A model generated the notes under the pieces. The model made no database searches. It was given only the letters and a program-made list of their open reading frames with translations, and was not told where the DNA came from. Shown piece after piece: positions 1 to 64,000 of a stretch of DNA of 64,000 nucleotides; positions within the stretch are counted from its first letter, which is position 1; every line of letters starts with the position of its first letter. The position numbers were made by a program, and so were the translations under genes. This DNA is from TPA_inf: Saccharomyces (taxonomy: Eukaryota): NCBI GenBank assembly GCA_000146045.2, contig BK006943.2, positions 416,001 through 480,000 on the forward strand, in the 5' to 3' direction.

Positions 1-36
1 TTGGAGTCGAAAGCTCTACCATTGAGCCACCGCTTC
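1..36 (-). tRNA. tW(CCA): tRNA-Trp(CCA), 5' exon only. The window starts at the exon/intron boundary, so the rest of the gene lies left of the window.
   Basis: Reverse complement of 1-36 is GAAGCGGTGGCTCAATGGTAGAGCTTTCGACTCCAA. This matches the yeast tRNA-Trp 5' exon, with an A-box and anticodon CCA. Confidence 0.8.
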
Positions 37-504
37 AACTTTTGTTGAAAATTTAGGCTAACATTTTCTAATAGGTGACATTACAAAATCCAGTCTTACA
101 GTTATGCTTAATATTGACCAGTAGTCATATTACTGGCATATTATCTGTTAGAATAGTGACATACTATTCTTTATTACTGATGAATTTGTAATTGTGAAGC
201 AATTAGACGCAAACGTCATTGATGTGTCAGGATGGAGAACGATATAGACTATGTGATAATGTAAAGTTAAATATCTGTTACTTGAACAATTAACTTGACG
301 TTTGTATATGTAAGGATATGGGTCATTACATAGAAACTATAGTAAATAGTCTCAGTATTGTTATATTTGTCATGTTTGATATGACTAATCGGCGCATGTT
401 TTACACCTCTTTTGTATAGTATAAGAAGATCTGCTTTTATTCTTGAACCCTACCACTATCTCGCCAAGTTTTTAAAAGATCCACTGCGATCATTGAAGAT
501 TCTA

Positions 505-1050
505 TTTCAAATAAAAATCAACTATTACCTATCATCTAGCATTCATATTACTTGTATATTATCATATCTGTAAGAAGATGACATGAATGATGAGAAATAG
601 TCATCAGACTTAATAAAAGCCGAAATTCAAGGTCGATAATGTAATAGGATAGGGTGTTGAATGACAATGTATAAAAGGAACGAAGACAGAGTAATACTAT
701 TATGTAAGAAATACCGATTCCCTTGTGAGTATATAAACATAACCATTTCATTAAAATAATTTATTCAATGGTATGTATGATATTATAATAACATACTTAT
801 ACTTGTCTCACTCTGTTCATAAACGCAACAATACAATTACTTTTGAATATTATCTTTAATAAATACACTTAGTAGTTACCAATAAATAATAAAATCCTTT
901 ACTAATACTAATATAAGGATTTCTATGTTCTCGAGGAGAACTCGTAGTATGTTCTGTATCCCTAATATTGTAGCCCTTAACAACAATGGAATACGAACAA
1001 TTTTCTTAATATTCGGCTATTTCTGAAATATACATATTCACGGGATACTA
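505..1050 (+). mobile_element. Degenerate Ty1/Ty2-type delta LTR remnant(s). The ends are delta-like; the middle is diverged or carries an insertion.
   Basis: 505-770 aligns with the 5' third of the intact delta at 62051 (..atcaactat..attatcatat..gatgagaaatagtcatc..ggattgataatgtaatagga..). 915-1045 aligns with the delta 3' end (..gaggagaactcgtagtat..ctaatattgtagcc..aacaatggaat..). The total span exceeds the 334-bp delta length. Confidence 0.6.
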
Positions 1051-1561
1051 GGAGGTCAGCATGTTACAAATTTCATGATAGTGCATCAAGAGACCCTAAA
1101 ATTAATATCCTTTATGTGCGTATTGCTTTCATGGTAGTAAATTATCACTGTTTTCATCTAGACGTGGGACGGTAACATTTTCGATAAATATCAAAAGATG
1201 GCAGTCATTGTATAGAATACCACAATTTGTGAGCATCTCTGAGGTTTTTTACAAGCTTCCGTAACTCATACAGACTTCTATCGTCCTACTCTAGTATTAT
1301 TTACCTATTCATAACCACTTTTTTATCCTTCTATTTAAATTTATAGATGCAAAGGGCGGAAAGAATTGACTGGAAAGTAAACTAAATATAAAAAATATCG
1401 CCAACTTATTCATACAATATCGTAGCAACTGACAACTTTTAAAAATCTGCAAAATTCTTTGTAGTGTTCCTTAATAATGTTTAAGCTAAGGTTTTTTATT
1501 AAGAGGAAAATATTGCATAATTCTATAATTTACATCAGTACAGTAGTAACATATTATCCAA

Positions 1562-3562
1562 TTATCTATAGTGCTTTTGCTTTTTGAAGGCGCTTCCTTC
1601 CTTCGAATTATTTCTTTCTCTTGAGTGCTTTTCTGGCTTTGGCTGTAGCGGTTTAGAATTTGGAAATATTTCAAATTCTTGCTCCTTAATTAGTTTTTTC
1701 CAATCCCACATTTTTCTAACATATAATTCCAGTTTCCAATTCTTCCACACTTGCCTGCCATAAATACTATTCTTCACCTTCTCAGTTTCTAAAACTAATG
1801 CTCTAGCAATACGCTCCTTATATAATGTTAATTTTGCCGTAAATTCCCACAATTTGTCCATTATATGAGAGCCATATACATTGCATGCCAAATTTACAGA
1901 CTCTTTAGACAGTATGTTCAATAGCATTTTTCTCTTAATTATGTCCACCCTAGTAGTTTGTAGTACGTGCTCAACAACATGCGAAAATACTCCATGGTAA
2001 CACATTTGTATCAACCTTTCCTCAGGCAGAGCCAACATGCTGTCAATGGTAATATTCAAAAACTTGTCGTCGTAGTCAATTAATTGTTCCAAGAAAACTG
2101 ATCGTCTTCTTTCTTCTGCTGTTGGCCAGTCATCTCTGGTATTGCCCAAAGTCGATGCACTCAACAACAGGCAACTTTCCAAAATATTCTTTGCATCAGA
2201 CTTTTCTGGATAATATTTTTGTATTAATTGAGCAATGACATCATCCCTTAAGTAACCACCTTGTTTATTGCTTGCGTTGATAATAGCAGTACCAAAATCC
2301 ATATTTGAGTTTAAAAGCATGCTTAATTCAGGAACTACTGCATCCAATATCTGTTTTACGTCCTTCTCCTTCAAATGTTCCAGCAATGCACGCACTACAA
2401 AGGCACCTGTAGTATCCCTTTTTGCTAGTTTCACAATACGGTCTTTCATATATAAACGATAAAGTCTTTCAACATATTTTAGCCTGGCAGAGCCAATCAC
2501 ATTTTCTAAGAAATGAGAACCGACAGGATCTGACAGTAAATATTCCAGGAATGATTCCTCCTTAGGATCCTTCTCATCTGCTGTATTGAAGACCAATCTC
2601 CAAAATGAACGGTCCCTGTCAAAAATACCTTCGACTTGAATAATGAGCTGAATTACAGGGGAAGCCACTTTATCCACACTGTACTCTCTAAATTTGGTGA
2701 TAGTAGATTGCGAAATATCAGAACGCGACTCGGCACCATTAGTAAATCCTTTGTATAAAGTAGTTATTATGTCACGAAGTTCAGATTTGAAAGATTCCGG
2801 TGTTTGGTAAACTTTATTGAAATCGTCATTATCTTTAATGTCAATCATTTTTCTTGCAATTTTTGACTTTTTGGAACGTAAAGTAGAGTTCGCTTTAGTT
2901 GAATTAGGCAATGTCTTGGAAGACAAAATTAATATTAGCAATCTCAAAACATGTGATGCATACTGATGGTTCATCATAGTTTTCAAGTGCGGTTTCAGTT
3001 CATTCAACATAAAGAGAAACATATTTTCCATAGTCACATAAGGCCCTTCTTTTTCATTGTTATCAAAACTTGGTGTTAAAAGTTCTCTTTCTACCAAGGC
3101 GGCACTTCTAACAAATAAAGTCTCTAAAACATGGGAAGCATATTTATGACATGACAACCCGAAGAAAACGCCATTGAAAGATTGGAAAATGTCTTTTAAC
3201 TGAGTCTCATCACATTCAAGAATAACTCGTTCCATCAATTTCGAAGTTATTTGGGAAGTAACCAATTTCAGTTCTTTACCTTTTGCTTCCTCAATAATGC
3301 TCGTGACGAATTGAAACTTTTCCTCAGGTGCTTCGAAGGCGTCTAATTGCAAAGTCGATTCGGCTTGCTTGAAATACTCCAGTTCTTCTCTATCTAGCAC
3401 ACCAAAAAACATTTGTGGCTGAGTCTCTTTAATTTCGGCTTCGTCATTGTAAGTAGACTCTTCTTGCTGGATGTGCTCCTTCGCAGAATTTGAACTGGGT
3501 TCAAATTCGTCCTTTCTCTGTTTGTCTTGGTGTCTTCTGCCTCTTGTTTTAGTCTTTCCCAT
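1562..3562 (-). CDS. NOP9: Nop9, a pumilio-repeat pre-18S rRNA binding protein, 666 aa
   Basis: 666-aa ORF starting at an ATG. Its position next to CCT8 matches YJL010C. Basic N-terminus and repeat architecture. Confidence 0.85.
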
Positions 3563-3956
3563 AATAACAATAATGTGGTTTTTCCGTGAAGGTTTCAGCG
3601 TCGTTCACAGTATACTAGTTGTAACAGATCGCAGCTCATCTAATATAATTTTCTTCATTATATTGTAGATGAGCATGAAAATTCTCGCTAACCGAAAAAA
3701 AATTGAAAAAAAAAAAAGTATTACAATCATCGAACAAATATACAGGCCAAGAGTTCGTCGGTTTTGCAGGTTGCTTCTTGGTTAATGTATACAGTACATC
3801 TGCATTATCAAAAATTCAAACATTATATATATCTTTACTACTATACAGGTACACATGATACAGCCTAGCAAGTTTGAAAACTTGATTGCAATTTATGACA
3901 TTATATTCTGCTGTTTGCAGGTATATCTACTTTGTAAGTATAAAGATGCAAACAAA

Positions 3957-5663
3957 TCAGTCTTCTTGGTCCCAGTTACCTGGCCTTGGGCCTTGAGGTG
4001 CTCTTGGACCACCCGCCTTCTTTGCCATGATAATTTGGTCAATGGAAAGCACAGTAGTTGCAGCTTCTGTAGCGACGTTAATAGCAAACTTTTTCGTTGC
4101 AAGCATGTCATAAATATTTTCCTCTCTGATGTCCTTTACACCTTCATCAGATTCGCCATCAATATCCACACCTTTATATAAATGATCTGTCTTAACTGCA
4201 CCAGGTTCAGTTACGTTATGTGCAGCGTATAAGTTTGGTAGTACCTCATTAACATCAAGACCAGCGGTCTCCGCTAGGGTACGAGGAACCACTTCAAAAG
4301 CCACGGCAAACTGTTTTATAGCTAACTGTAGCAATCCAGGTGTTCGTTCACCATACTTAGTTATCCTAGAAATCAATTCAATTTCGGTAGCACCAGCACC
4401 AGGCAACAACTTACCGCCTGATGGCTTCATTAGTCCCTTGACGGCTGCAACACCATCATCAATGGCTCTTTCAATATCATCCAAATTATTCTGTGTGGCA
4501 CCTCTTAAAATGATAGTAGATGTTCTTGAAATTTCACCTTGCTCTTGTTTGAACACAGTTACTCTATCACCACCTATCTCCATTGTCTTAACAGTTTCCA
4601 CTAAACCTAATTCTTCTGGAGTTGGCGCACCTAATCTAGGCAATGGAGTGGCCCCACAAACGCGACATAATCTTCTTAATTCGAATTTGCTTGGTACCTT
4701 CAAGACTAGTATACCGTATCTATTCAAATAATGTAACGCCAATTCACCAACACCAGCACCTGCAACAATGCATTCTACGCCCATGTCGGCAATCTCTTTC
4801 ATCATGGCATCTATTTGCTTTTCCTCGCCCTTAGAAAAATCGAGCATTTCTTGTGCATTATGTAATAAAACAGTGCCTTTCGTTTCAGTATTGGCTATGT
4901 CAAGCGGACAAGTGAAAACTGCAACTTTATGCTTTTTATCTTCGGATAATGATTTTACATGGCCTTCAGGCTCACGATTGAAAACCATACCTTTGATGAC
5001 GGTAGAATTGGAAAGCGATCCACCCATAATCTTTACTACTCTGATAGAATCAACATTAAAATAAGGAATTTCTCCAGCTTGCTGAGCAACTGGTAAAACG
5101 TGAGATACAGCTTCAGAAACAAGTTCACTCAATATGTCTTCAGATCCGTACTTTTTGGAGGAGATGACTGGTTTAATCATTTTCAAAAGTTCGTTTTTAT
5201 CATTCTTGTCAGTAATTTCACCAACAACCATTTCGTCTAGTTCTTTCAAAGTAAACTTCCTTGCCATATTATAACCTTGAATAATCTCAACGGCAGACAA
5301 GCCCATTGAAATCAGTTTTTCGGACACATTTAATAGTTCGCCAGCCAAAATCATGACTAAATTTGTACCGTCTCCCATGTCGATCTTCTGTTGTTCAGTC
5401 GCCATTACGAGGACTTTCACTGCAGGATGGACAATATCTAGTTCTCTTAGCATGGTGGCCGCGTCGTTGGTAATAATGATTTTACCGAGATGGTTAACAA
5501 TGATCTTGTTTCTACCACAGGGTCCCATAGAAGTCAAACACATTTGATGTAATTCGCGAATGGCCGCAATTGATTTAATAATTTGGCCATCGGCGTTAGA
5601 GTAACTATTGTAGCCTTGTTTAAACAATCCCGCGTTGGGATTTTGTGGCAATCTAAGTGACAT
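3957..5663 (-). CDS. CCT8: Chaperonin CCT/TRiC theta subunit, 568 aa
   Basis: 568-aa ORF with chaperonin motifs (..GDGTN.., ..VAGAGVGELALHYL..). Position matches YJL008C. Confidence 0.9.
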   Translation of the reverse strand: MSLRLPQNPNAGLFKQGYNSYSNADGQIIKSIAAIRELHQMCLTSMGPCGRNKIIVNHLGKIIITNDAATMLRELDIVHPAVKVLVMATEQQKIDMGDGTNLVMILAGELLNVSEKLISMGLSAVEIIQGYNMARKFTLKELDEMVVGEITDKNDKNELLKMIKPVISSKKYGSEDILSELVSEAVSHVLPVAQQAGEIPYFNVDSIRVVKIMGGSLSNSTVIKGMVFNREPEGHVKSLSEDKKHKVAVFTCPLDIANTETKGTVLLHNAQEMLDFSKGEEKQIDAMMKEIADMGVECIVAGAGVGELALHYLNRYGILVLKVPSKFELRRLCRVCGATPLPRLGAPTPEELGLVETVKTMEIGGDRVTVFKQEQGEISRTSTIILRGATQNNLDDIERAIDDGVAAVKGLMKPSGGKLLPGAGATEIELISRITKYGERTPGLLQLAIKQFAVAFEVVPRTLAETAGLDVNEVLPNLYAAHNVTEPGAVKTDHLYKGVDIDGESDEGVKDIREENIYDMLATKKFAINVATEAATTVLSIDQIIMAKKAGGPRAPQGPRPGNWDQED

Positions 5664-6587
5664 GGTTAATTGATGATTTTATTGCCCTTGAGGTTCAAGT
5701 TGTCTTGTCGGTATCTGTAAAGTGAGAACATCATCATGCTATACTATTTTCTTCACTTTTTTTTGCCACTAGCGGAGGTGATGAACATTTTCGAATACCG
5801 TTAATAATGACAAAAACACCATTAACTTGGCTTATATAAAATAAGCTATTGAAATAGTAAATGTGCTCGCAACTCTTTAATTATCTAAATCCGGCAGCTT
5901 CTTTATTGATTAATAATACAAAATGTTCGGACAAGTGATCATTAGATATCAACATGAATTCAATTGGTAACAATTTCGATGCTTACATTTTATGCTAGTA
6001 TACACCACGCATATGTCTGTCAATGTACCTATTACAGAAGGAAATGTTCAAGAAGCAGTTCAGACAGTACCGAAGCAGAATTAAAAATCCATTATTTGAA
6101 TATGATCTGATAGTCATATATATGAGCAATACAGGTCTTCACATTAAATGTATGAGAACTGCCGGAACCACTATTACATTGGTCACAATTAGGAATGAAC
6201 CAATCGGCGTGTGTTTTATATCCCCCTTATATAAGTCTAAGAAGATCGATATTCAATCTTCATTAATAAAGCTTTTTGACCTCTACCTATGAGCAATAAA
6301 CCATATCCATCAATAGTGGTCAAGCCGTAAGAATGTTTTTACCGAGAATAGAAGTAAACTTTTCTTATTGTATATAAGAAAAGCATATAAACACGCGCCC
6401 AGAGAACATATTCAGTATGCCCTAGCTTGGAAACACATCAGTAAAATACTACGCGCCTAGTATAATGACTTCTATATCCAAAATTTTTAAGTTAACCTTT
6501 CAAGTAAAAGATCTTTGCCTTATACTACTGTCTGAACAACTCGTATAAATTAATGTATGATATGAACATTCCCATTGTTACGATAGA

Positions 6588-6905
6588 TGTCCTAATGAGG
6601 ATCAACTATAATCTATCGAATAGTATTCATATTACTAATATATTATCATGTACGATGTACCAAGATGGCATGAAGATTGAGAAAACAGTCATCAGATTTA
6701 ATAGATGCTGAAATGCCAGGACTGATAGTGTAACAGAATAATGAATGATATCATATAAATTGGGGAAACAATAATGACAATATTATGTGAAAATATCAAT
6801 TCTCTTTTGTGGATTACAAGATCCCCTGGAGAACTTCTAGTATGTCCTGTATACCCGGTGCTATATCCTTTAATAACCATGGAATCCGCAAATATTTGAT
6901 GTAAA
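6588..6905 (+). mobile_element. Solo delta (Ty1 LTR), diverged, about 30 bp upstream of tRNA-Met
   Basis: Alignable along its length to the delta at 62051-62384 (atcaactat..attatcatgtacg..gatgagaaaacagtcatcagatttaatag..ctgaaa..gataatg.., ..ggagaacttctagtatgtcctgtatacc..). No Ty internal sequence is present. Confidence 0.7.
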
Positions 6906-6936: not shown

Positions 6937-7009
6937 GCTTCAGTAGCTCAGTAGGAAGAGCGTCAGTCTCATAATCTGAAGGTCGAGAGTTCGAACCTCC
7001 CCTGGAGCA
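6937..7009 (+). tRNA. tM(CAU): Elongator tRNA-Met (anticodon CAU), 73 nt, followed by an oligo-T Pol III terminator
   Basis: GCTTCAGTAGCTCAGTAGGAAGAGCGTCAGTCTCATAATCTGAAGGTCGAGAGTTCGAACCTCCCCTGGAGCA. The anticodon loop CTCATAA and GTTCGAA T-loop are present. A T-run follows at 7012-7026. Confidence 0.9.
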
Positions 7010-7137
7010 CATTTTCTTTTTTTGTGAATTAAACCTCGAAGCTCAACATTCATGTTTTGAGATAAAAAAAGGTACTTATTACTTGTGTAAAAGAAAGTTT
7101 ATAATGATGATCTTATTTAAGTTTATAGTAGGACTTT

Positions 7138-8109: not shown

Positions 8110-8431
8110 ATCAAAGTACGTAATTTTCTTAGTTTTGCTGGCTCTATATCTCCTCTCGCTCTATAGATACAGATATATATATATATATATATATATCTAT
8201 GTGTATAAAGACGGCTTTCAGGACAGTACTTGTTTGGATTTTTGATCATCGCGGATTTTCGCAATGCAAGTATAAAGAGAGCATTACCCGCCACACAGTG
8301 ATTCTTCAGCAAGTTGTACCGAAAAGGACCATTTAGGTACGTGGGATCGCAAAGGTTCCCAAACGGTGTGCATCAAGCCGTAGACTTCATGAGTGCTTTC
8401 GGTGCAGCAAAAAGATAAGGACAAAAAATAC

Positions 8432-8515
8432 TGAAGGATGCGAGGTTCGAACTCGCGCGGACAACCGTCCAACAGATCTTAAGTCTGCCGCCTTAGACCA
8501 CTCGGCCAACCCTCC
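8432..8515 (-). tRNA. tL(UAA): tRNA-Leu (anticodon UAA), 84 nt, no intron; the terminator T-run lies downstream on the minus strand
   Basis: Reverse complement is GGAGGGTTGGCCGAGTGGTCTAAGGCGGCAGACTTAAGATCTGTTGGACGGTTGTCCGCGCGAGTTCGAACCTCGCATCCTTCA. Long variable arm, anticodon TAA. A T7 tract (8423-8429 on the minus strand) follows. Confidence 0.9.
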
Positions 8516-9156
8516 ATCTTATTTAAAAATCCTAGGAAATAGATGTTATATAAGTCATACATCATTGAAAACATCAAATACCGTTCCCTGCGTTGTTCTA
8601 CAGAAAAGCGCATTAGAGTAGGTCATACCCTTTAAAAAATGATTTTGTAAATGCCAGAAAGTAAACAAATATGCATTTCGCCTAGCTCCCAATGTAAATA
8701 GCCATAAAAAAGGATAAAATGCCAGATTTAGAGTCAGTTCTCGTTCTTCTTCTTCTCTGTGTTCAATTGTTCAATTGCATTGTTAATCACTGAAATTCTA
8801 TGTTTCAAATTGGAATGGCAGACTGAACTGAGACCTTCCTTACTTTCTCCTCTATCAAACCTAAATATTCAATCATAACCTTATTTTTTCACTTCCTTTT
8901 TCTTACTTTTTTTTTTTTTTTTTTTTTGTATTTTGGAAGGAAAGCAGGGGGGACTTACCATAAGAAAAGCGACTCTAAAAAAGTGTATTTTCTTCCAAAG
9001 TTCAGTAAAGACAGCTGGGAAGTATAGTAACAGAGGAGAGAAAGCATAAGGAGACCTCTTGCTGCAGTTCACAACCAAAAATAGCATATCTTTACTATTG
9101 TCGCTAACCATTGCGAAACGAGCTAAAGCAACAGCAAACGAAATCCCTAGGTCGAA

Positions 9157-12100
9157 ATGTCATCAAAACCTGATACTGGTTCGGAAATTTCTGGCCCTCA
9201 GCGACAGGAAGAACAAGAACAACAGATAGAGCAGAGCTCACCTACGGAAGCAAACGATAGAAGCATTCATGATGAGGTACCAAAAGTCAAGAAGCGTCAC
9301 GAACAAAATAGTGGTCACAAATCAAGAAGGAATAGCGCATATAGTTATTACAGCCCACGGTCGCTTTCTATGACCAAAAGCAGGGAGAGTATCACTCCAA
9401 ATGGTATGGATGATGTAAGTATTTCGAACGTGGAACATCCAAGGCCGACAGAACCGAAAATCAAAAGGGGTCCATATTTACTGAAGAAAACATTGAGCAG
9501 TCTTTCAATGACGAGCGCGAATAGTACTCATGATGATAATAAAGACCACGGTTACGCTTTGAATTCATCCAAGACGCACAACTACACATCTACTCATAAC
9601 CATCATGACGGTCATCATGATCATCATCATGTTCAGTTTTTTCCCAATAGGAAGCCATCATTAGCGGAAACCCTATTCAAAAGGTTTTCAGGGTCAAACA
9701 GTCACGATGGCAATAAGTCAGGAAAGGAAAGTAAAGTTGCTAACCTTTCCCTTTCAACGGTAAATCCTGCACCTGCTAATAGGAAACCTTCTAAAGACTC
9801 CACTTTATCTAATCACTTGGCTGATAACGTGCCAAGCACTTTACGAAGGAAAGTGTCCTCATTGGTACGTGGTTCTTCCGTCCATGATATAAATAATGGT
9901 ATTGCAGATAAACAGATTAGACCAAAGGCTGTTGCGCAATCAGAAAATACATTACATTCATCCGATGTTCCCAATAGCAAACGCTCGCACAGAAAAAGCT
10001 TTCTGCTAGGCTCCACATCTTCTTCAAGCAGTAGAAGAGGTTCAAATGTCAGTTCAATGACTAACAGTGACAGTGCAAGTATGGCGACGTCGGGTAGTCA
10101 TGTTCTCCAACATAACGTATCTAATGTTTCTCCAACTACTAAAAGTAAGGACAGCGTTAACAGCGAATCCGCCGATCACACTAATAATAAATCCGAGAAA
10201 GTGACTCCAGAATATAATGAGAACATTCCGGAAAATTCTAACTCTGACAACAAACGCGAAGCCACAACGCCTACTATAGAAACACCCATTTCATGTAAAC
10301 CATCCCTTTTCAGGCTAGATACAAACCTTGAGGATGTTACTGATATTACAAAGACGGTGCCACCCACCGCTGTCAATTCTACACTAAATTCTACACACGG
10401 GACTGAGACTGCCTCACCCAAAACGGTGATCATGCCTGAAGGTCCTAGGAAGTCGGTGTCAATGGCTGATCTCTCCGTCGCTGCCGCAGCACCTAATGGT
10501 GAATTCACATCAACTTCCAATGATAGATCACAATGGGTAGCACCTCAAAGCTGGGATGTGGAAACCAAAAGGAAAAAAACAAAACCTAAAGGGAGATCGA
10601 AATCAAGAAGGTCAAGTATAGATGCTGATGAACTTGATCCCATGTCACCGGGGCCACCTTCAAAAAAAGACTCTCGTCATCATCACGATCGAAAGGATAA
10701 CGAATCAATGGTCACTGCGGGTGACAGTAACTCAAGTTTTGTTGATATATGTAAAGAAAACGTTCCGAATGATAGCAAGACCGCACTCGATACTAAATCT
10801 GTGAACCGCTTAAAAAGTAATTTGGCTATGAGTCCCCCAAGTATACGATATGCTCCATCAAATTTAGATGGGGACTACGACACGTCTTCCACTTCCTCAT
10901 CTTTACCGTCCTCATCTATTAGTTCAGAAGATACATCTTCCTGCAGCGATTCCTCTTCGTACACTAACGCGTATATGGAGGCCAACCGAGAGCAGGATAA
11001 TAAAACACCGATCCTGAATAAAACGAAATCGTATACCAAGAAATTTACATCCTCTTCGGTAAATATGAATTCACCAGATGGTGCCCAGAGTTCTGGATTA
11101 TTACTACAAGATGAGAAGGACGATGAGGTCGAGTGCCAACTGGAACATTACTATAAAGATTTCAGTGATTTAGATCCAAAGAGGCACTATGCTATTCGTA
11201 TATTCAATACTGATGACACTTTTACGACTCTCTCATGTACTCCAGCGACTACCGTCGAAGAGATAATACCTGCACTTAAAAGAAAATTTAACATTACAGC
11301 GCAAGGGAATTTTCAAATTTCCCTGAAGGTGGGAAAGTTGTCAAAAATTTTGAGACCAACTTCGAAACCTATTTTAATTGAAAGAAAACTTTTACTTTTG
11401 AATGGTTATCGAAAGTCAGACCCACTTCATATTATGGGTATAGAGGATTTAAGTTTTGTTTTTAAGTTTCTTTTCCATCCTGTCACACCTTCTCACTTTA
11501 CTCCTGAACAAGAACAAAGAATAATGAGAAGCGAATTTGTTCACGTAGATTTAAGGAATATGGATCTGACTACACCTCCCATCATTTTTTACCAGCATAC
11601 GTCAGAAATAGAAAGTTTAGACGTTTCTAATAACGCAAATATATTCCTACCTCTGGAGTTCATTGAAAGCTCGATTAAATTATTAAGTTTGAGAATGGTT
11701 AATATTAGAGCATCTAAATTTCCTTCCAATATCACTAAGGCGTATAAACTAGTATCTTTGGAATTACAGAGAAACTTCATAAGAAAAGTACCGAACTCAA
11801 TCATGAAACTGAGTAATTTAACGATATTAAACCTTCAATGTAATGAGCTTGAAAGCCTACCGGCTGGATTTGTTGAACTGAAAAATCTGCAATTGCTAGA
11901 CTTGTCTTCAAACAAGTTCATGCACTACCCAGAAGTTATTAACTACTGCACCAATCTTTTACAAATAGACCTATCATATAATAAAATCCAAAGCTTACCA
12001 CAGTCCACTAAGTACCTAGTAAAGCTTGCGAAGATGAACCTTTCTCATAACAAACTAAATTTTATAGGCGACTTATCGGAAATGACAGATTTGAGGACGC

Positions 12101-54964: not shown

Positions 54965-55137
54965 AGTCGTTCACTGGCTCCCCTTGTTAGTTCAGTGCTT
55001 AAAAACGTTACATATCTTGATGAACAGCTAGCTGCTTTGATCAAGAGAAAAAAAAAAAAAATTGGCACCGCATCTTAGTGCCGCAATCTTACGTAACAAG
55101 AGAGCTATAAAAGTACAACTAACAACTCTTCTAATAC

Positions 55138-55671
55138 TTAATTAGATTGAGGGCGTGCGTAGTTTAACGTCTTGCAATGGAAACATGTCCTCTTTTCGAC
55201 ATCATTTTCAAAATCTAAAATGGCTTCTTTCACTTGGGTACCTAAGTCTAACATTTGCAGTTCACTCTCGTGGACCACTTGGCGACAATGAGAACAGTAC
55301 CACCTTATCTTATCGTTTTCTCCCCCAGGCCTATCTTGTTCCACAACAATACCCACAGTATCAGCAAACCGAACAGGACTGTGAGGAACATTTCCTGGCA
55401 ATAAATATGAATCGCCTTCATTGATGATGATATCAATGAACTTTGGTTCAGCGTCTGTCTCATCCACAACCTTTAAAAGCATAGATCCTTTTTTTTGATA
55501 GAACCATTCGGGAGTTGGATTGATGTGATAACCGGTTCTTTCATTAGGCCCACCGACAATCATCACAGTGAATCCCCCTTTATGTAAGCAATAATTATTC
55601 ACCGGTGGTTTCAAAAGGCCTTCGTTCTCCTTCAACCATTTGTCGATATTAATTGGTGTAGTATTAAACAT
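55138..55671 (-). CDS. BNA1: 3-hydroxyanthranilate 3,4-dioxygenase (NAD biosynthesis), 177 aa
   Basis: 177 aa with a cupin fold and a C-terminal CxxC...CxxC pair. Position matches YJR025C. Confidence 0.85.
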
Positions 55672-56759
55672 TTTTTTCGATTTTTTTGGTAAATGTATGC
55701 TATTTCAGTTACTTGTAGACTGTCGTGAAAAGAATAAAGAAAGAATCTTTTACGTCCGTTTTTTTACTTTGCCGAATATGTTTCAGTGACTCACAATTTA
55801 TCCTGACGCCGTCACAAAGGCAGCCATTCCATTGCAATAACGACACTCTGAATATTCACGAACGTTCACCAGACATTTGGAGGCAGCGTTCTAAATGCCG
55901 ATACCCGTTCAGGAGTACAGGTGTCAGTGACAGAAAAATAATGGCACCGTTGACGTCGAAAATACATCCGCGCAAATTTTGACAGGCTATTTTGGCAGCG
56001 CAATCAAAGAATAAACTTGGTATAGTAAGGAAGCCAGTTACTGTACGCATGAATTACGGTAGCTTTTTTTATTTTATTTATTTTTTTTTTTTTTGGACAA
56101 ATAGAAAAATTTTTATTATTATGTAAGATTATTGAAGTAAAAATACAATTGGACGAATCTAGTTAGATTGCCAAGATGTGTTAAAAGGCAAGATTAACTT
56201 ATGAACATGATCTACAACGTCCTGGTTTTTAAATTCGAGTAAATACGCCTCCTTTTTATCTGTGAATGACAGTCCTGTTCTCCCAAGTCTTTTTACATCA
56301 TGGAGACGGGAGTTATACTCTCTCGGGTACAAGGTTCCTTCAGCATCAGAACAGATCACAAACTTTATCGCAACAACAATTCCTTTATATTCCTGGGAAA
56401 ATATGTCGGTATAGCCTACTCGAGACGGCTTCCAAACATCAGCTTTCGTTTTAACATGTTGCTGTTGGAATAAAAATCCACTATCGTCTATCAACTAATA
56501 GTTATATTATCAATATATTATCATATACGGTGTTAAGATGATGACATAAGTTATGAGAAGCTGTCATCGAAGTTAGAGGAAGCTGAAACGCAAGGATTGA
56601 TAATGTAATAGGATCAATGAATATAAACATATAAAACGGAATGAGGAATAATCGTAATATTAGTATGTAGAAATATAGATTCCATTTTGAGGATTCCTAT
56701 ATCCTCGAGGAGAACTTCTAGTATATTCTGTATACCTAATATTATAGCCTTTATCAACA

Positions 56760-58082
56760 ATGGAATCCCAACAATTATCTCAACATTCACATATTTCTCA
56801 TGGTAGCGCCTGTGCTTCGGTTACTTCTAAGGAAGTCCACACAAATCAAGATCCGTTAGACGTTTCAGCTTCCAAAACAGAAGAATGTGAGAAGGCTTCC
56901 ACTAAGGCTAACTCTCAACAGACAACAACACCTGCTTCATCAGCTGTTCCAGAGAACCCCCATCATGCCTCTCCTCAACCTGCTTCAGTACCACCTCCAC
57001 AGAATGGGCCGTACCCACAGCAGTGCATGATGACCCAAAACCAAGCCAATCCATCTGGTTGGTCATTTTACGGACACCCATCTATGATTCCGTATACACC
57101 TTATCAAATGTCGCCTATGTACTTTCCACCTGGGCCACAATCACAGTTTCCGCAGTATCCATCATCAGTTGGAACGCCTCTGAGCACTCCATCACCTGAG
57201 TCAGGTAATACATTTACTGATTCATCCTCAGCGGACTCTGATATGACATCCACTAAAAAATATGTCAGACCACCACCAATGTTAACCTCACCTAATGACT
57301 TTCCAAATTGGGTTAAAACATACATCAAATTTTTACAAAACTCGAATCTCGGTGGTATTATTCCGACAGTAAACGGAAAACCCGTACGTCAGATCACTGA
57401 TGATGAACTCACCTTCTTGTATAACACTTTTCAAATATTTGCTCCCTCTCAATTCCTACCTACCTGGGTCAAAGACATCCTATCCGTTGATTATACGGAT
57501 ATCATGAAAATTCTTTCCAAAAGTATTGAAAAAATGCAATCTGATACCCAAGAGGCAAACGACATTGTGACCCTGGCAAATTTGCAATATAATGGCAGTA
57601 CACCTGCAGATGCATTTGAAACAAAAGTCACAAACATTATCGACAGACTGAACAATAATGGCATTCATATCAATAACAAGGTCGCATGCCAATTAATTAT
57701 GAGAGGTCTATCTGGCGAATATAAATTTTTACGCTACACACGTCATCGACATCTAAATATGACAGTCGCTGAACTGTTCTTAGATATCCATGCTATTTAT
57801 GAAGAACAACAGGGATCGAGAAACAGCAAACCTAATTACAGGAGAAATCTGAGTGATGAGAAGAATGATTCTCGCAGCTATACGAATACAACCAAACCCA
57901 AAGTTATAGCTCGGAATCCTCAAAAAACAAATAATTCGAAATCGAAAACAGCCAGGGCTCACAATGTATCCACATCTAATAACTCTCCCAGCACGGACAA
58001 CGATTCCATCAGTAAATCAACTACTGAACCGATTCAATTGAACAATAAGCACGACCTTCACCTTAGGCCAGGAACTTACTGA
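56760..58082 (+). CDS. TYA: Ty1 Gag (TYA), 440 aa; the ATG lies inside the 5' LTR
   Basis: [32 protein letters not shown]... is the canonical Ty1 Gag. Confidence 0.95.
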
Positions 58083-61000
58083 ATCTACGGTAAATCACAC
58101 TAATCATTCTGATGATGAACTCCCTGGACACCTCCTTCTCGATTCAGGAGCATCACGAACCCTTATAAGATCTGCTCATCACATACACTCAGCATCATCT
58201 AATCCTGACATAAACGTAGTTGATGCTCAAAAAAGAAATATACCAATTAACGCTATTGGTGACCTACAATTTCACTTCCAGGACAACACCAAAACATCAA
58301 TAAAGGTATTGCACACTCCTAACATAGCCTATGACTTACTCAGTTTGAATGAATTGGCTGCAGTAGATATCACAGCATGCTTTACCAAAAACGTCTTAGA
58401 ACGATCTGACGGCACTGTACTTGCACCTATCGTACAATATGGAGACTTTTACTGGGTATCTAAAAGGTACTTGCTTCCATCAAATATCTCCGTACCCACC
58501 ATCAATAATGTCCATACAAGTGAAAGTACACGCAAATATCCTTATCCTTTCATTCATCGAATGCTTGCGCATGCCAATGCACAGACAATTCGATACTCAC
58601 TTAAAAATAACACCATCACGTATTTTAACGAATCAGATGTCGACTGGTCTAGTGCTATTGACTATCAATGTCCTGATTGTTTAATCGGCAAAAGCACCAA
58701 ACACAGACATATCAAAGGTTCACGACTAAAATACCAAAATTCATACGAACCCTTTCAATACCTACATACTGACATATTTGGTCCAGTTCACAACCTACCA
58801 AAAAGTGCACCATCCTATTTCATCTCATTTACTGATGAGACAACAAAATTCCGTTGGGTTTATCCATTACACGACCGTCGCGAGGACTCTATCCTCGATG
58901 TTTTTACTACGATACTAGCTTTTATTAAGAACCAGTTTCAGGCCAGTGTCTTGGTTATACAAATGGACCGTGGTTCTGAGTATACTAACAGAACTCTCCA
59001 TAAATTCCTTGAAAAAAATGGTATAACTCCATGCTATACAACCACAGCGGATTCCCGAGCACATGGAGTCGCTGAACGGCTCAACCGTACCTTATTAGAT
59101 GACTGCCGTACTCAACTGCAATGTAGTGGTTTACCGAACCATTTATGGTTCTCTGCAATCGAATTTTCTACTATTGTGAGAAATTCACTAGCTTCACCTA
59201 AAAGCAAAAAATCTGCAAGACAACATGCTGGCTTGGCAGGACTTGATATCAGTACTTTGTTACCTTTCGGTCAACCTGTTATCGTCAATGATCACAACCC
59301 TAACTCCAAAATACATCCTCGTGGCATCCCAGGTTACGCTCTACATCCGTCTCGAAACTCTTATGGATATATCATCTATCTTCCATCCTTAAAGAAGACA
59401 GTAGATACAACTAACTATGTTATTCTTCAGGGCAAGGAATCCAGATTAGATCAATTCAATTACGACGCACTCACTTTCGATGAAGACTTAAACCGTTTAA
59501 CTGCTTCATATCAATCGTTCATTGCGTCAAATGAGATCCAAGAATCCAATGATCTTAACATAGAATCTGACCATGACTTCCAATCTGACATTGAACTACA
59601 TCCTGAGCAACCGAGAAATGTCCTTTCAAAAGCTGTGAGTCCAACCGATTCCACACCTCCGTCAACTCATACTGAAGATTCGAAACGTGTTTCTAAAACC
59701 AATATTCGCGCACCCAGAGAAGTTGACCCCAACATATCTGAATCTAATATTCTTCCATCAAAGAAGAGATCTAGCACCCCCCAAATTTCCAATATCGAGA
59801 GTACCGGTTCGGGTGGTATGCATAAATTAAATGTTCCTTTACTTGCTCCCATGTCCCAATCTAACACACATGAGTCGTCGCACGCCAGTAAATCTAAAGA
59901 TTTCAGACACTCAGACTCGTACAGTGAAAATGAGACTAATCATACAAACGTACCAATATCCAGTACGGGTGGTACCAACAACAAAACTGTTCCGCAGATA
60001 AGTGACCAAGAGACTGAGAAAAGGATTATACACCGTTCACCTTCAATCGATGCTTCTCCACCGGAAAATAATTCATCGCACAATATTGTTCCTATCAAAA
60101 CGCCAACTACTGTTTCTGAACAGAATACCGAGGAATCTATCATCGCTGATCTCCCACTCCCTGATCTACCTCCAGAATCTCCTACCGAATTCCCTGACCC
60201 ATTTAAAGAACTCCCACCGATAAATTCTCATCAAACTAATTCCAGTTTGGGTGGTATTGGTGACTCTAATGCCTATACTACTATCAACAGTAAGAAAAGA
60301 TCATTAGAAGATAATGAAACTGAAATTAAGGTATCACGAGACACATGGAATACTAAGAATATGCGTAGTTTAGAACCTCCGAGATCGAAGAAACGAATTC
60401 ACCTGATTGCAGCTGTAAAAGCAGTAAAATCAATCAAACCAATACGGACAACCTTACGATACGATGAGGCAATCACCTATAATAAAGATATTAAAGAAAA
60501 AGAAAAATATATCGAGGCATACCACAAAGAAGTCAATCAACTGTTGAAGATGAAAACTTGGGACACTGACGAATATTATGACAGAAAAGAAATAGACCCT
60601 AAAAGAGTAATAAACTCAATGTTTATCTTCAACAAGAAACGTGACGGTACTCATAAAGCTAGATTTGTTGCAAGAGGTGACATTCAGCATCCTGATACGT
60701 ACGATACAGGTATGCAATCCAACACTGTACATCATTATGCGTTGATGACATCCCTGTCACTTGCATTAGACAATAACTACTATATTACACAATTAGACAT
60801 ATCTTCGGCATATTTGTATGCAGACATCAAAGAAGAATTATACATAAGACCTCCACCACATTTAGGAATGAATGATAAGTTGATACGTTTGAAGAAATCA
60901 CATTATGGATTGAAACAAAGTGGAGCGAACTGGTACGAAACTATCAAATCATACCTGATAAAACAGTGTGGTATGGAAGAAGTTCGTGGATGGTCATGCG

Positions 61001-62028
61001 TATTTAAGAATAGTCAAGTAACAATTTGCTTATTCGTTGATGATATGATATTGTTCAGCAAAGACTTAAATGCAAATAAGAAAATCATAACAACACTCAA
61101 GAAACAATACGATACAAAGATAATAAATCTGGGTGAAAGTGATAACGAAATTCAGTACGACATACTTGGCTTAGAAATCAAATATCAAAGAGGTAAATAC
61201 ATGAAATTAGGTATGGAAAACTCATTAACTGAGAAAATACCCAAATTAAACGTACCTTTGAATCCAAAAGGAAGAAAACTTAGCGCTCCAGGTCAACCAG
61301 GTCTTTATATAGACCAGGATGAACTAGAAATAGATGAAGATGAATACAAAGAGAAGGTACATGAAATGCAAAAGTTGATTGGTCTAGCTTCATATGTTGG
61401 ATATAAATTTAGATTTGACTTACTATACTACATCAACACACTTGCTCAACATATACTATTCCCCTCTAGGCAAGTTTTAGACATGACATATGAGTTAATA
61501 CAATTCATGTGGGACACTAGAGATAAACAACTGATATGGCACAAAAACAAACCTACCGAGCCAGATAATAAACTAGTCGCAATAAGCGATGCTTCATATG
61601 GTAACCAACCATATTACAAGTCACAAATTGGTAACATTTTCCTACTCAACGGAAAAGTGATTGGAGGAAAGTCGACAAAGGCTTCATTAACATGTACTTC
61701 AACTACGGAAGCAGAAATACACGCGATAAGTGAATCTGTCCCATTATTAAATAATCTAAGTTACCTGATACAAGAACTTAACAAGAAACCAATTATTAAA
61801 GGCTTACTTACTGATAGTAGATCAACGATCAGTATAATTAAGTCTACAAATGAAGAGAAATTTAGAAACAGATTTTTTGGCACAAAGGCAATGAGACTTA
61901 GAGATGAAGTATCAGGTAATAATTTATACGTATACTACATCGAGACCAAGAAGAACATTGCTGATGTGATGACAAAACCTCTTCCGATAAAAACATTTAA
62001 ACTATTAACTAACAAATGGATTCATTAG
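58066..62028 (+). CDS. TYB: Ty1 Pol (TYB: protease, integrase, reverse transcriptase, RNase H). It is expressed as a Gag-Pol fusion by +1 ribosomal frameshifting at CTTAGGC (58062-58068).
   Basis: The +1 frame is open from the frameshift heptamer to 62028. It contains the protease DSGAS, the integrase HHCC/DDE region, and RT YVDDM-like FVDDMIL. Confidence 0.9.
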
Positions 62029-62343
62029 ATCTATTACATTATGGGTGGTATGTTGGAATAGAAATCAACTATCATCTACTAACTAGTATTTACATTACTA
62101 GTATATTATCATATACGGTGTTAGAAGATGACGCAAATGATGAGAAATAGTCATCTAAATTAGTGGAAGCTGAAACGCAAGGATTGATAATGTAATAGGA
62201 TCAATGAATATAAACATATAAAATGATGATAATAATATTTATAGAATTGTGTAGAATTGCAGATTCCCTTTTATGGATTCCTAAATCCTTGAGGAGAACT
62301 TCTAGTATATTCTGTATACCTAATATTATAGCCTTTATCAACA

Positions 62344-63666
62344 ATGGAATCCCAACAATTATCTCAACATTCACATATTTCTCATGGTAGCGCCTGTGCT
62401 TCGGTTACTTCTAAGGAAGTCCACACAAATCAAGATCCGTTAGACGTTTCAGCTTCCAAAACAGAAGAATGTGAGAAGGCTTCCACTAAGGCTAACTCTC
62501 AACAGACAACAACACCTGCTTCATCAGCTGTTCCAGAGAACCCCCATCATGCCTCTCCTCAAACTGCTCAGTCACATTCACCACAGAATGGGCCGTACCC
62601 ACAGCAGTGCATGATGACCCAAAACCAAGCCAATCCATCTGGTTGGTCATTTTACGGACACCCATCTATGATTCCGTATACACCTTATCAAATGTCGCCT
62701 ATGTACTTTCCACCTGGGCCACAATCACAGTTTCCGCAGTATCCATCATCAGTTGGAACGCCTCTGAGCACTCCATCACCTGAGTCAGGTAATACATTTA
62801 CTGATTCATCCTCAGCGGACTCTGATATGACATCCACTAAAAAATATGTCAGACCACCACCAATGTTAACCTCACCTAATGACTTTCCAAATTGGGTTAA
62901 AACATACATCAAATTTTTACAAAACTCGAATCTCGGTGGTATTATTCCGACAGTAAACGGAAAACCCGTACGTCAGATCACTGATGATGAACTCACCTTC
63001 TTGTATAACACTTTTCAAATATTTGCTCCCTCTCAATTCCTACCTACCTGGGTCAAAGACATCCTATCCGTTGATTATACGGATATCATGAAAATTCTTT
63101 CCAAAAGTATTGAAAAAATGCAATCTGATACCCAAGAGGCAAACGACATTGTGACCCTGGCAAATTTGCAATATAATGGCAGTACACCTGCAGATGCATT
63201 TGAAACAAAAGTCACAAACATTATCGACAGACTGAACAATAATGGCATTCATATCAATAACAAGGTCGCATGCCAATTAATTATGAGAGGTCTATCTGGC
63301 GAATATAAATTTTTACGCTACACACGTCATCGACATCTAAATATGACAGTCGCTGAACTGTTCTTAGATATCCATGCTATTTATGAAGAACAACAGGGAT
63401 CGAGAAACAGTAAACCTAATTACAGGAGAAATCCGAGTGATGAGAAGAATGATTCTCGCAGCTATACGAATACAACCAAACCCAAAGTTATAGCTCGGAA
63501 TCCTCAAAAAACAAATAATTCGAAATCGAAAACAGCCAGGGCTCACAATGTATCCACATCTAATAACTCTCCCAGCACGGACAACGATTCCATCAGTAAA
63601 TCAACTACTGAACCGATTCAATTGAACAATAAGCACGACCTTCATCTTAGGCCAGAAACTTACTGA
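62344..63666 (+). CDS. TYA: Ty1 Gag (TYA) of copy 2, 440 aa
   Basis: Nearly identical to the copy 1 Gag, except for a short variant patch ([10 protein letters not shown] instead of [10 protein letters not shown]) and two point substitutions. Confidence 0.95.
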
Positions 63667-64000
63667 ATCTACAGTAAATCATACTAATCATTCTGATGAT
63701 GAACTCCCTGGACACCTCCTTCTCGATTCAGGAGCATCACGAACCCTTATAAGATCTGCTCATCACATACACTCAGCATCATCTAATCCTGACATAAACG
63801 TAGTTGATGCTCAAAAAAGAAATATACCAATTAACGCTATTGGTGACCTACAATTTCACTTCCAGGACAACACCAAAACATCAATAAAGGTATTGCACAC
63901 TCCTAACATAGCCTATGACTTACTCAGTTTGAATGAATTGGCTGCAGTAGATATCACAGCATGCTTTACCAAAAACGTCTTAGAACGGTCTGACGGCACT
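63650..64000 (+). CDS. TYB: Ty1 Pol (TYB) of copy 2, N-terminal part only; the frameshift site CTTAGGC is at 63646-63652
   Basis: The same heptamer is present and the +1 frame stays open to the window end (..[14 protein letters not shown]..). Confidence 0.85.

Follow-up and report, generated by a model that had tools for sequence, protein, structure and literature searches.

A head-to-tail Ty1 pair on Saccharomyces cerevisiae chromosome X with a hybrid middle LTR, probably formed by recombinational addition of a Ty1/Ty2-hybrid unit

Hybrids between Ty1 and Ty2 were reportedly described as a subfamily of Ty1 by Jordan and McDonald in 1998/1999, and the same subfamily is said to be named with the studies of Carr et al. 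(2012) and Bleykasten-Grosshans et al. (2013). Tandem-forming recombination of cDNA is likewise said to have been observed by Ke and Voytas (1997) for Ty5 and by Sharon et al. (1994) for Ty1. In published Ty1/2 hybrids, a segment of TYB and the 240-bp U3 are derived from Ty2 (PMC4022208, PMC3511429). Ty1 cDNA can enter the genome through homologous recombination with resident elements (PMC5911963), and in the Tf1/Tf2 system, integrase-independent recombination of cDNA produces chimeric tandems in which the two elements are separated by one LTR (PMC11042837). Tandem formation by Ty1 and Ty5 is Rad52-dependent, and mutations in Ty1 integrase increase recombination-mediated insertion (PMC11042837). 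Tandem Ty1 elements have also been followed among laboratory yeasts: the YMLWTy1-1A/B tandem is present in some S288C-derived strains, and PCR and SNP data handle the chromosome X locus considered here as "two tandem Ty1s" (PMC3102749).

The window that we analyzed, a stretch of 64,000 nucleotides, covers a region of S. cerevisiae chromosome X beside BNA1 and carries the annotated head-to-tail Ty1 pair YJRWTy1-1/YJRWTy1-2. The genes around the array (TES1, MER2, MDE1, and BNA1) are the neighbors of that pair, and both the array length of 11,510-11,511 bp and the 5,588-bp offset of the second element agree with the S288C elements, for which the annotation gives a matching 11.5-kb tandem span at chrX 472456-483965. 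The tandem and its mechanism class are already described, and the locus is a clear example of known biology. Within the window the direct repeat amounts to 5.6 kb, which puts a chance origin far out of range. The same structure recurs in the long-read assembly of CEN.PK113-7D (GCA_002571405.2) and, independently, in GCA_010356925.1, and the CEN.PK113-7D tandem shows 0 mismatches to the window across 9 kb. The array ends approximately 3,973 bp past the window (window-equivalent 67973). Its third LTR and the final 2.3 kb of copy 2 were taken from CEN.PK113-7D, the assembly of which has indel errors, and from a strain with a single element at this site (GCA_947370305.1, hereafter L003). In a limited search of the literature on YJRWTy1-1/YJRWTy1-2, we did not find the LTR pattern, the decomposition into a permuted hybrid, or the allelic series presented below spelled out.

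All parts of the array lie on the forward strand. Copy 1 (YJRWTy1-1) begins with LTR A at 56463-56800, a canonical Ty1 LTR of 338 bp with U3 at approximately 56463-56702 and R-U5 at approximately 56703-56800. It continues with a PBS, TGGTAGCGCC, at 56801-56810, an intact TYA (Gag) frame of 440 aa at 56760-58082 (Pfam TYA, E=1e-233), the +1 frameshift heptamer CTTAGGC at 58062-58068, and an intact TYB (Pol) frame of 1,328 codons at 58042-62028 (Pfam rve, SH3_retrovirus, and RVT_2). The PPT of copy 1, GGGTGGTA, at 62043-62050, abuts the 334-bp LTR B at 62051-62384, in which a Ty2-type U3 (approximately 62051-62286) is joined to a Ty1-type R-U5 (approximately 62287-62384). Directly after LTR B come the PBS of copy 2, again TGGTAGCGCC, at 62385-62394, the intact 440-aa TYA frame of copy 2 (YJRWTy1-2) at 62344-63666, and the start of its TYB at 63626-64000 (frameshift heptamer at 63646-63652), which leaves the window; in an identical assembly (L002) this frame is open to at least window-equivalent 65671. 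With a PPT before it and a PBS after it, LTR B is common to both copies, as the initial annotation had proposed.

Both copies belong to Ty1. LTRs A and B alike start with TGTTGG and end with TTCTCA, and a PBS right after the 5′ LTR and a PPT right before the 3′ LTR give the Ty1 order; the Ty1 PBS is complementary to initiator tRNA-Met. The domain order in copy 1 (TYA, rve, RVT_2) places integrase ahead of reverse transcriptase, with TYB reached by the +1 frameshift. Their gag is of Ty1 type: the two Gag proteins are 98% identical to a cluster named "Transposon Ty1-OR Gag," which is itself approximately 50% identical to the Ty2 Gag query introduced below, and the internal DNA at element positions 339-4448 is only approximately 70% identical to Ty2. 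Over the first 1,616 bp of their internal regions the copies differ at approximately 14 positions, and the differences between their Gag proteins fall in a cluster corresponding to 56979-56996; an exact-protein look-up with the Gag of copy 2 returned no record. Ty1 usually inserts within approximately 1 kb upstream of a gene transcribed by RNA polymerase III, a preference that is not obligatory. Unlike that usual target, the present site lies inside a protein-coding ORF, and ARAGORN and Rfam detected no tRNA or other RNA gene within approximately 8.5 kb to its right or 12 kb to its left.

Global alignment of LTR A with LTR B gave 295 matches, 39 mismatches, and 4 gap columns, an identity of 87.3%, which bears out the earlier observation that the outer 5′ LTR and the shared LTR are not identical. 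Every difference is confined to LTR-A positions 11-244, and the final 94 bp are the same in both. The third LTR, beyond the window (L011:20869-21206), is 100% identical to LTR A, and thus the middle LTR is the deviant one; the two LTRs of the L003 element are likewise 100% identical to LTR A. The initial annotation had cast the outer 5′ LTR as the unusual member, an assignment that must be reversed, since the outer LTRs are identical canonical Ty1 sequences and the hybrid is in the middle. Over U3, the middle LTR shares 98.7% identity with Ty2 and 81.4% with LTR A, 47 of the 48 discriminating sites being Ty2-type; over R-U5 it shares 99% identity with LTR A and 84.4% with Ty2, from which it differs at 15 or more sites; for comparison, the U3 regions of LTR A and Ty2 are just 80.9% identical. 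Judged from these alignments, the shared LTR is a Ty1/2-hybrid LTR composed of a Ty2 U3 and a Ty1 R-U5. Copy 1 is accordingly bounded by A and B and copy 2 by B and A, so that neither annotated copy is a simple hybrid element, a hybrid LTR being found at both ends in neither.

The Ty2 contribution extends upstream of LTR B. We reached a Ty2 reference with a Gag query taken to be that of Ty2; it matched a real cluster at 98%, the members of which bear names such as YLR410W-A-like and YOR192C-A-like, after S288C Ty2 ORFs. No protein named Ty2 came up in homolog searches with Gag or with the Pol C-terminus of copy 1. Another candidate reference, the P0029 match, was discarded, its contigs being from a distant Ty1-like element of another yeast at 70-80% identity. 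Identity to Ty2 over element positions 4546-5588 reaches 96.2% in copy 1, as opposed to 84.3% in copy 2 and in the L003 element. The last 1.1 kb or so of copy 1 is thus Ty2-like; this part, comprising the 3′ TYB and PPT region, lies at 60911-62050, with its start somewhere in 60911-61008. The foreign tract is contiguous over the center of the array, running from the 3′ TYB of copy 1 through the U3 of LTR B and its Ty1-type R-U5 into the 5′ part of copy 2. Such a combination of Ty2 3′ TYB, Ty2 U3, and Ty1 R-U5 fits the published Ty1/2 hybrids.

A three-way alignment with the L003 element shows that the two copies are reciprocally chimeric. Copy 1 agrees with that element at 72 of 72 informative sites in positions 1-3133, and in positions 3763-5840 it is copy 2 that agrees, at 204 of 205 sites. 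The pattern switches just once, with 0 substitutions between the L003 element and whichever copy matches it, and the switch falls in a 630-bp stretch that is identical between the copies (element positions 3133-3763, or 59595-60225 in copy 1). To the left of this interval copy 1 is of the single-element allele type, and to its right it is of the foreign type. The foreign parts, when re-joined in the order LTR B, copy 2 positions 335-3400, copy 1 positions 3405-5588, and LTR B, make an element of 5,918 bp with identical LTRs, an intact TYA of 440 aa, and a complete TYB, and these properties make the reconstructed hybrid a plausible active donor as far as its sequence can tell. No independent genomic copy identical to this reconstruction was found.

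The target site gives a complementary view of the array. GTTGC is read at 56458-56462, immediately left of copy 1, where it had been noted before, and it is present again past the final LTR in the L011 allele; it also flanks the lone L003 element on both sides. Empty alleles, with the sequence AACATGTTGC|CTTAC, contain GTTGC once. At the center of the array, PPT, LTR B, and PBS are contiguous, without additional bases or a duplication between the copies, so the units are separated by exactly one LTR and the sole target duplication is the one around the array. The comparison across strains that the initial annotation had suggested revealed empty, single-element, and tandem alleles. Empty sites are seen in eight of 10 MDE1-anchored assemblies and in two Logan contigs. 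L003 has one Ty1 at the exact site, with the same GTTGC duplication and two A-type LTRs, its element being equivalent, with 0 substitutions, to the 5′ part of copy 1 joined to the 3′ part of copy 2.

A single GTTGC duplication around the array, none inside it, identical outer LTRs, and reciprocal chimerism together argue for a recombinational origin, and we consider it probable that homologous recombination added one unit of a Ty1/2-hybrid element, in circularly permuted form, to a resident canonical Ty1. The order of the two steps that follow would be a matter of inference. First, integrase would have placed a canonical Ty1 with identical 338-bp LTRs, "R," in the 3′ portion of YJR030C, generating the GTTGC duplication. 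A second element, "I," a Ty1/Ty2 hybrid with Ty2-derived 3′ TYB and U3, would later have contributed one unit by homologous recombination within the internal domain of R, presumably independently of integrase. The incoming DNA was most likely extrachromosomal and reverse-transcribed rather than a chromosomal copy: a one-LTR circle might have integrated by a single crossover, or a break in R might have been repaired on a linear cDNA template, with the two extended ends annealing in the LTR. Either route would lead to the identical product, LTR A – R 5′ part – I 3′ part – LTR B – I 5′ part – R 3′ part – LTR A, that is, two complete Ty1 units with a common hybrid LTR and without a new target duplication. 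Directly visible in the array are the A-B-A order of its LTRs, the one target duplication around it, a foreign tract derived from Ty2, and the reciprocal chimerism. The single-element allele of L003 may instead have come from the tandem by pop-out, rather than being its ancestor. In that case, the interval at element positions 3133-3763 would mark the pop-out crossover and not the original exchange, and the order of single and then tandem is accordingly tentative.

Of the other histories we weighed, an unlikely one is that unequal exchange between sister chromatids or between LTRs first made an A-A-A tandem, the central part of which, from the 3′ end of copy 1 across the middle LTR into the 5′ part of copy 2, was then converted by a Ty1/2 hybrid. 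An element can form a tandem through unequal exchange between its LTRs, recombination among genomic Ty1 elements is documented (at least 41 events in 32 elements; PMC3511429), and the final sequence would be indistinguishable from the one we observe. However, conversion in one tract requires a donor that carries 3′ TYB, LTR, and 5′ gag in one unbroken stretch, an arrangement found only in circles, concatemers, and other tandems; a linear donor would call for two tracts with their outer ends coinciding in one 630-bp interval, and no A-A-A allele occurred among the assemblies examined. We regard as slightly less likely still a one-step integration of a preformed dimeric or concatemeric cDNA into the empty site, followed by a pop-out that left the single allele. 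Multimeric cDNA arrays arise in rrm3 mutants (PMC7073672), multimeric Ty arrays are reportedly the subject of Weinstock 1990 (cited in PMC5911963), and L003 is compatible with such a pop-out. Concatemers of two cDNAs joined at an LTR, however, predict either differing outer LTRs (A and B) or homogeneity, in conflict with the identical outer A LTRs, the hybrid middle LTR, and the reciprocally chimeric internal domains.

The initial annotation had offered recombination or gene conversion between Ty1 elements of different subfamilies and integration into a preexisting LTR as alternatives. Recombination between subfamilies is upheld by the reciprocally chimeric internal regions and the identical outer LTRs, and the latter alternative, a second integrase-mediated insertion in or at the edge of an existing LTR, is very improbable. 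It would explain the presence of two element units and nothing further, but there are just three LTRs, no 5-bp duplication accompanies LTR B, PPT and PBS meet LTR B as in a normal element, and the sequence type switches approximately 2 kb from the LTR, within the internal domain. We rejected it as refuted by the junction sequences. The earlier statement that the pair does not look like two fresh insertions stands as well, and two independent insertions were set aside on the strength of the single GTTGC pair around the array, the lack of an internal duplication, the identical outer LTRs, and the chimeric internal regions. Least credible of all is an artificial joining of repeats; although misassembly of Ty elements is common, we dismissed it here because the structure recurs in the two independent assemblies and agrees with both the S288C annotation and the PCR and SNP data (PMC3102749).

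The site of insertion has a consequence for the host gene. The array shortens the 840-aa ORF of YJR030C/RBH2 to 745 aa; the intact and shortened proteins are collinear up to residue 741. The orphaned 3′ end of the ORF, some 99-100 codons and a stop, lies on the reverse strand at 56159-56462, and the ORF translation ends ...HDVKRLGRTGL...KLILPFNTSWQSN. YJR030C/RBH2 is intact in the empty-site alleles. From the sequence, the laboratory reference allele is predicted to encode a Ty-truncated protein without its last 99 residues. Pfam recognized no domain in the 840-aa protein or in the orphaned tail, and a limited look at publications on the gene did not find the truncation of the reference allele stated. 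Growth of wine and sake strains is strongly impaired when YJR030C/RBH2 is deleted (PMC3504119). The gene is conserved, and its truncation in the laboratory reference could matter to functional work that uses S288C-derived strains.

The main value of the locus is as a clean worked example, and it leaves the current understanding of Ty biology unchanged. LTR identity is in wide use for dating insertions of LTR retrotransposons; applied here to the two LTRs of copy 1 or of copy 2 (87% identity), such dating would be far off the mark, the true outer pair being 100% identical. The locus also illustrates that Ty2-derived regulatory sequence, in the form of U3, spreads via recombination as well as transposition. 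The existence of empty, single, and tandem alleles at one site is an observation; that the empty site, the single canonical Ty1, and the A-B-A array are preserved steps of one history is a tentative reading, toward which we lean somewhat less than away. If true, this would be the cleanest natural and polarizable case in S. cerevisiae of a Ty unit being added by recombination without integrase.

In comparison with described systems, the array has no structural difference from YJRWTy1-1/YJRWTy1-2 of S288C (chrX ~472,456-483,965), which is the same locus. The polymorphic head-to-tail Ty1 pair YMLWTy1-1A/B lies on another chromosome, and there the reference is the single form (PMC3102749). With the Ty1/2-hybrid subfamily the inserted unit shares its mosaic of Ty1 gag, 5′ pol, and R-U5 with Ty2 3′ TYB and a U3 of approximately 240 bp. 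Whereas a normal Ty1/2 hybrid has a hybrid LTR at both ends, neither annotated copy does so here; the hybrid unit is circularly permuted in the center of the array, and hybrid LTRs at both ends are regained just in the reconstructed, re-permuted donor. The insertion of Tf1 into Tf2 in Schizosaccharomyces pombe (Li et al. 2022, PMC11042837) likewise leaves two elements with one LTR between them and no new duplication, and in both cases the upstream element changes from resident to incoming sequence inside pol. The Tf1/Tf2 clones return to resident sequence within the central LTR, whereas here the incoming sequence runs approximately 2.8 kb or more into copy 2, which argues that a full unit was added via an exchange in the internal domain.

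In the window, a 5.6-kb unit occurs as a direct repeat of two copies, YJRWTy1-1 (copy 1) and YJRWTy1-2 (copy 2), with a start-to-start spacing of 5,584-5,588 bp. The outer 5' LTR (LTR A, 56463-56800, 338 bp) and the shared LTR (LTR B, 62051-62384, 334 bp) both start with TGTTGG and end with TTCTCA. In a global alignment they are 87.3% identical (295 matches, 39 mismatches, and 4 gap columns), with all differences confined to LTR-A positions 11-244 and the final 94 bp identical. The polypurine tract GGGTGGTA (62043-62050) abuts LTR B on the left and the primer-binding site TGGTAGCGCC (62385-62394) abuts it on the right, and the copies are joined without any duplication. Copy 1 encodes an intact 440-aa TYA (56760-58082) and carries the +1 frameshift heptamer CTTAGGC at 58062; its TYB frame stays open to 62028 (1,328 codons), integrase coming ahead of reverse transcriptase. 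In copy 2, TYA is likewise intact (62344-63666) and the heptamer lies at 63646, after which the element continues past the window end. Across the first 1,616 bp of their internal regions about 14 differences separate the copies, and half of these cluster at 56979-56996. The initial annotation, which described two Ty1 units sharing one LTR with a non-identical outer 5' LTR, is borne out in every detail.

By the yeast gene map, the neighboring ORFs are TES1 (acyl-CoA thioesterase, 349 aa), REC107/MER2 (Mer2), MDE1 (class II aldolase, 244 aa), and BNA1 (3-hydroxyanthranilate dioxygenase, 177 aa), all on S. cerevisiae chromosome X. Exact-protein look-ups retrieved chromosome X assemblies of S. cerevisiae, among them GCA_010356925.1. 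This is the annotated tandem YJRWTy1-1/YJRWTy1-2, for which Carr et al. 2012 give the coordinates chrX 472456-483965 and a second-element start of 478044; the 5,588-bp offset and 11.5-kb span found here are those of the published coordinates. Chan & Kolodner 2011 named this locus 'two tandem Ty1s' (PMC3102749).

The third LTR and the last 2.3 kb of the array were read from other strains: CEN.PK113-7D and GCA_947370305.1, the latter carrying a single Ty1 (L003). Chromosome X of CEN.PK113-7D (GCA_002571405.2), found by a look-up with the copy 1 Gag, holds the full array, with 0 mismatches and 7 gap openings relative to the window over 9 kb. Of its three LTRs, the first and third match LTR A at 100% identity and the central one matches LTR B at 100%; the array is bordered by GTTGC|TGTTGG to its left and by TTCTCA|GTTGC to its right, so that the flank beyond the final LTR matches the one to the left of copy 1. 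Thus, a single target-site duplication encloses the entire array. The mismatch initially annotated between the outer 5' LTR and the shared LTR is real, but the deviant is the shared LTR, the outer pair being identical.

Comparison across strains revealed three allelic states. The tandem is carried by the window, CEN.PK, and GCA_010356925.1, which is 100% identical to window 55000-64000. A single Ty1 with two A-type LTRs and GTTGC on both sides occupies exactly the same position in one assembly (GCA_947370305.1), and the empty site, reading AACATGTTGC-CTTACTTT, is present in two Logan contigs and in 8 of 10 MDE1-anchored assemblies. Relative to the window, the flanks show 7 differences in 11,263 bases in the single-element strain and 1 in 2,311 in one empty-site contig; the empty, single, and tandem states therefore all lie on very similar haplotypes. 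A short-read contig of a somewhat more diverged strain (GCA_026954535.1, WOFK01000310.1; 22 of 11,263 flanking bases differ) ends exactly at the Ty junction, window 56462, which suggests a Ty at this site there also.

A three-way alignment of copy 1, copy 2, and the L003 element resolves the array into two components. At element positions 1-3133, copy 1 agrees with the L003 element at 72 of 72 informative sites and copy 2 is the odd one out; at 3763-5840, copy 2 agrees with it at 204 of 205 and copy 1 is odd. There is a single switch, within a 630-bp stretch identical between the copies (window 59595-60225 in copy 1). If substitutions alone are considered, the L003 element differs from copy 1 at 0 of 2,795 positions (339-3133) and from copy 2 at 0 of 1,826 (3763-5588); its few residual differences are single-base gaps typical of long-read assemblies. 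This pattern divides the array into a resident element, R, which comprises the 5' part of copy 1 and the 3' part of copy 2 with A-type LTRs, and a contiguous foreign unit, I, consisting of the 3' part of copy 1, LTR B, and the 5' part of copy 2.

The foreign unit passes the sequence tests of the Ty1/2 hybrid subfamily. As Ty2 reference we used an element on CEN.PK chromosome III (L020:7710-13666; 332-bp LTRs, AAATC duplication), reached through a Gag cluster that matches a Ty2 Gag sequence at 98% and has members bearing the names YLR410W-A-like and YOR192C-A-like, which in SGD nomenclature refer to Ty2 ORFs. The U3 of LTR B is 98.7% identical to Ty2 versus 81.4% to LTR A, and its R-U5 is 99% identical to LTR A versus 84.4% to Ty2. 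From position 17 to 238 of LTR B, 47 of the 48 sites that discriminate the two types are Ty2-type, and from position 264 on LTR B is Ty1-like. Reverse transcription, by taking U3 from the 3' terminus of the RNA and R-U5 from the 5' terminus, accounts for a breakpoint at the U3/R boundary. Positions 4546-5588 are 96.2% identical to Ty2 in copy 1 versus 84.3% in copy 2 and the L003 element, and upstream of about 4450 both copies are about 70% identical to it. Put back into unpermuted order, the foreign parts form an element of 5,918 bp whose LTRs are identical and which carries a 440-aa TYA and a complete TYB, a credible active donor. Since the two LTRs of each annotated copy differ, neither copy is a simple transposition product. 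Published Ty1/2 hybrids likewise draw a TYB segment and a 240-bp U3 from Ty2 (PMC4022208, PMC3511429), and such hybrids make up 18 of the 32 full-length S288C Ty1 elements (PMC4022208; see also PMC3511429, PMC7055915). Another hybrid Ty1 (L020:17-5935) lies near the reference Ty2 beside LEU2, with extra delta fragments between them; it shares 97.6% identity with copy 1 over the 3' TYB, and its LTRs, only 92-93% identical to LTR A and LTR B alike, represent a second hybrid LTR type.

The most economical history passes through three states. Integrase-mediated insertion of canonical R into the empty site would have generated the GTTGC duplication and identical A LTRs; one unit of hybrid I would then have been added to R by homologous recombination in the internal domain, giving LTR_A-R5'-I3'-LTR_B-I5'-R3'-LTR_A. 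A one-LTR circle of I could integrate through a single crossover, or a break in R could be repaired from linear I cDNA, each end copying out to the LTR, where the ends anneal; both routes yield exactly the observed product. We infer that the single element preceded the tandem, that the donor was probably cDNA, and that the event was probably independent of integrase. L003 could instead be a pop-out of the tandem, the 630-bp interval then marking the pop-out crossover. However L003 arose, the A-B-A order of LTRs, the one duplication around the array, and the unbroken hybrid tract all require that a resident canonical element recombined with a hybrid. The main proposal of the initial annotation, recombination between Ty1 subfamilies as opposed to two fresh insertions, is right.

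Other explanations fare less well. Unequal exchange might have produced an A-A-A tandem whose center was later gene-converted; we consider this unlikely, as it needs either a donor with contiguous 3'-LTR-5' order or two tracts with coincident ends, and no A-A-A allele was seen among the assemblies examined. One-step integration of a concatemer seems even less probable, since it does not predict identical outer LTRs flanking a different middle one. The junction sequences exclude integration into a pre-existing LTR, an alternative entertained earlier, and an assembly artefact is excluded by the agreement of two independent assemblies with the reference annotation and with PCR data from the literature.

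The array splits the conserved 840-aa YJR030C/RBH2 ORF after residue 741. Empty-site strains encode the 840-aa protein and Ty-bearing (S288C-type) alleles a 745-aa protein whose last 4 codons and stop lie within the U5 end of the LTR; the orphaned 99-codon tail remains at window 56159-56462 on the minus strand (see also L006:211-2733 and L003:1054-3291). This interruption is not mentioned in PMC3504119 or PMC5091641. Lying within a polymerase II ORF, the insertion site is atypical for Ty1: both units pass all Ty1 structural tests, but the usual preference for the vicinity of polymerase III genes is absent. A scan around 56462/56463 that took in the L021, L003, and CEN.PK (L011) flanks found no tRNA genes (ARAGORN) or Rfam families over ~8.5 kb on the right side and ~12 kb on the left; within the window, the closest tRNAs are at 6937-7010 and 8431-8516. 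Diverged remnants of old deltas (Ty1/Ty2 LTRs), with 71-83% identity to LTR A or B, lie at 510-1024 and 6601-6887, the latter just upstream of tRNA-Met (6937-7010), a classical Ty1 target position. On chromosome X of GCA_033956085.1, evidently synthetic (Sc2.0-type), ATAACTTCGTATAATGTACATTATACGAAGTTAT, which we take to be a loxPsym site, replaces the array between two GTTGC copies (L001:about 9170-9215; L024); this design removed the Ty elements and kept the target-site duplication, leaving YJR030C interrupted.

Two points are worth keeping: the splitting of YJR030C/RBH2, and the pitfall that dating either copy from its own LTR pair would be badly misleading. A metagenome contig from another yeast (ENA ERZ1760321 NODE_531, L014:1-10416) carries a distant Ty1-like element, 70-80% identical, arranged TYA-TYB-TYA-TYB with a period of exactly 5,624 bp; this layout could reflect a further tandem built around one shared LTR, or else a loop that the assembler made at the LTR. 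Earlier work has already described this tandem, the hybrid type of LTR, and the formation of tandems by recombination, and our finding is real but known biology. The literature supports this class of event: in Tf1/Tf2, integrase-independent recombination of cDNA produces chimeric tandems with a single LTR between the units, and an important role for Rad52 in forming Ty1 and Ty5 tandems is reported, along with more recombination-mediated insertion when Ty1 integrase is mutated (PMC11042837).
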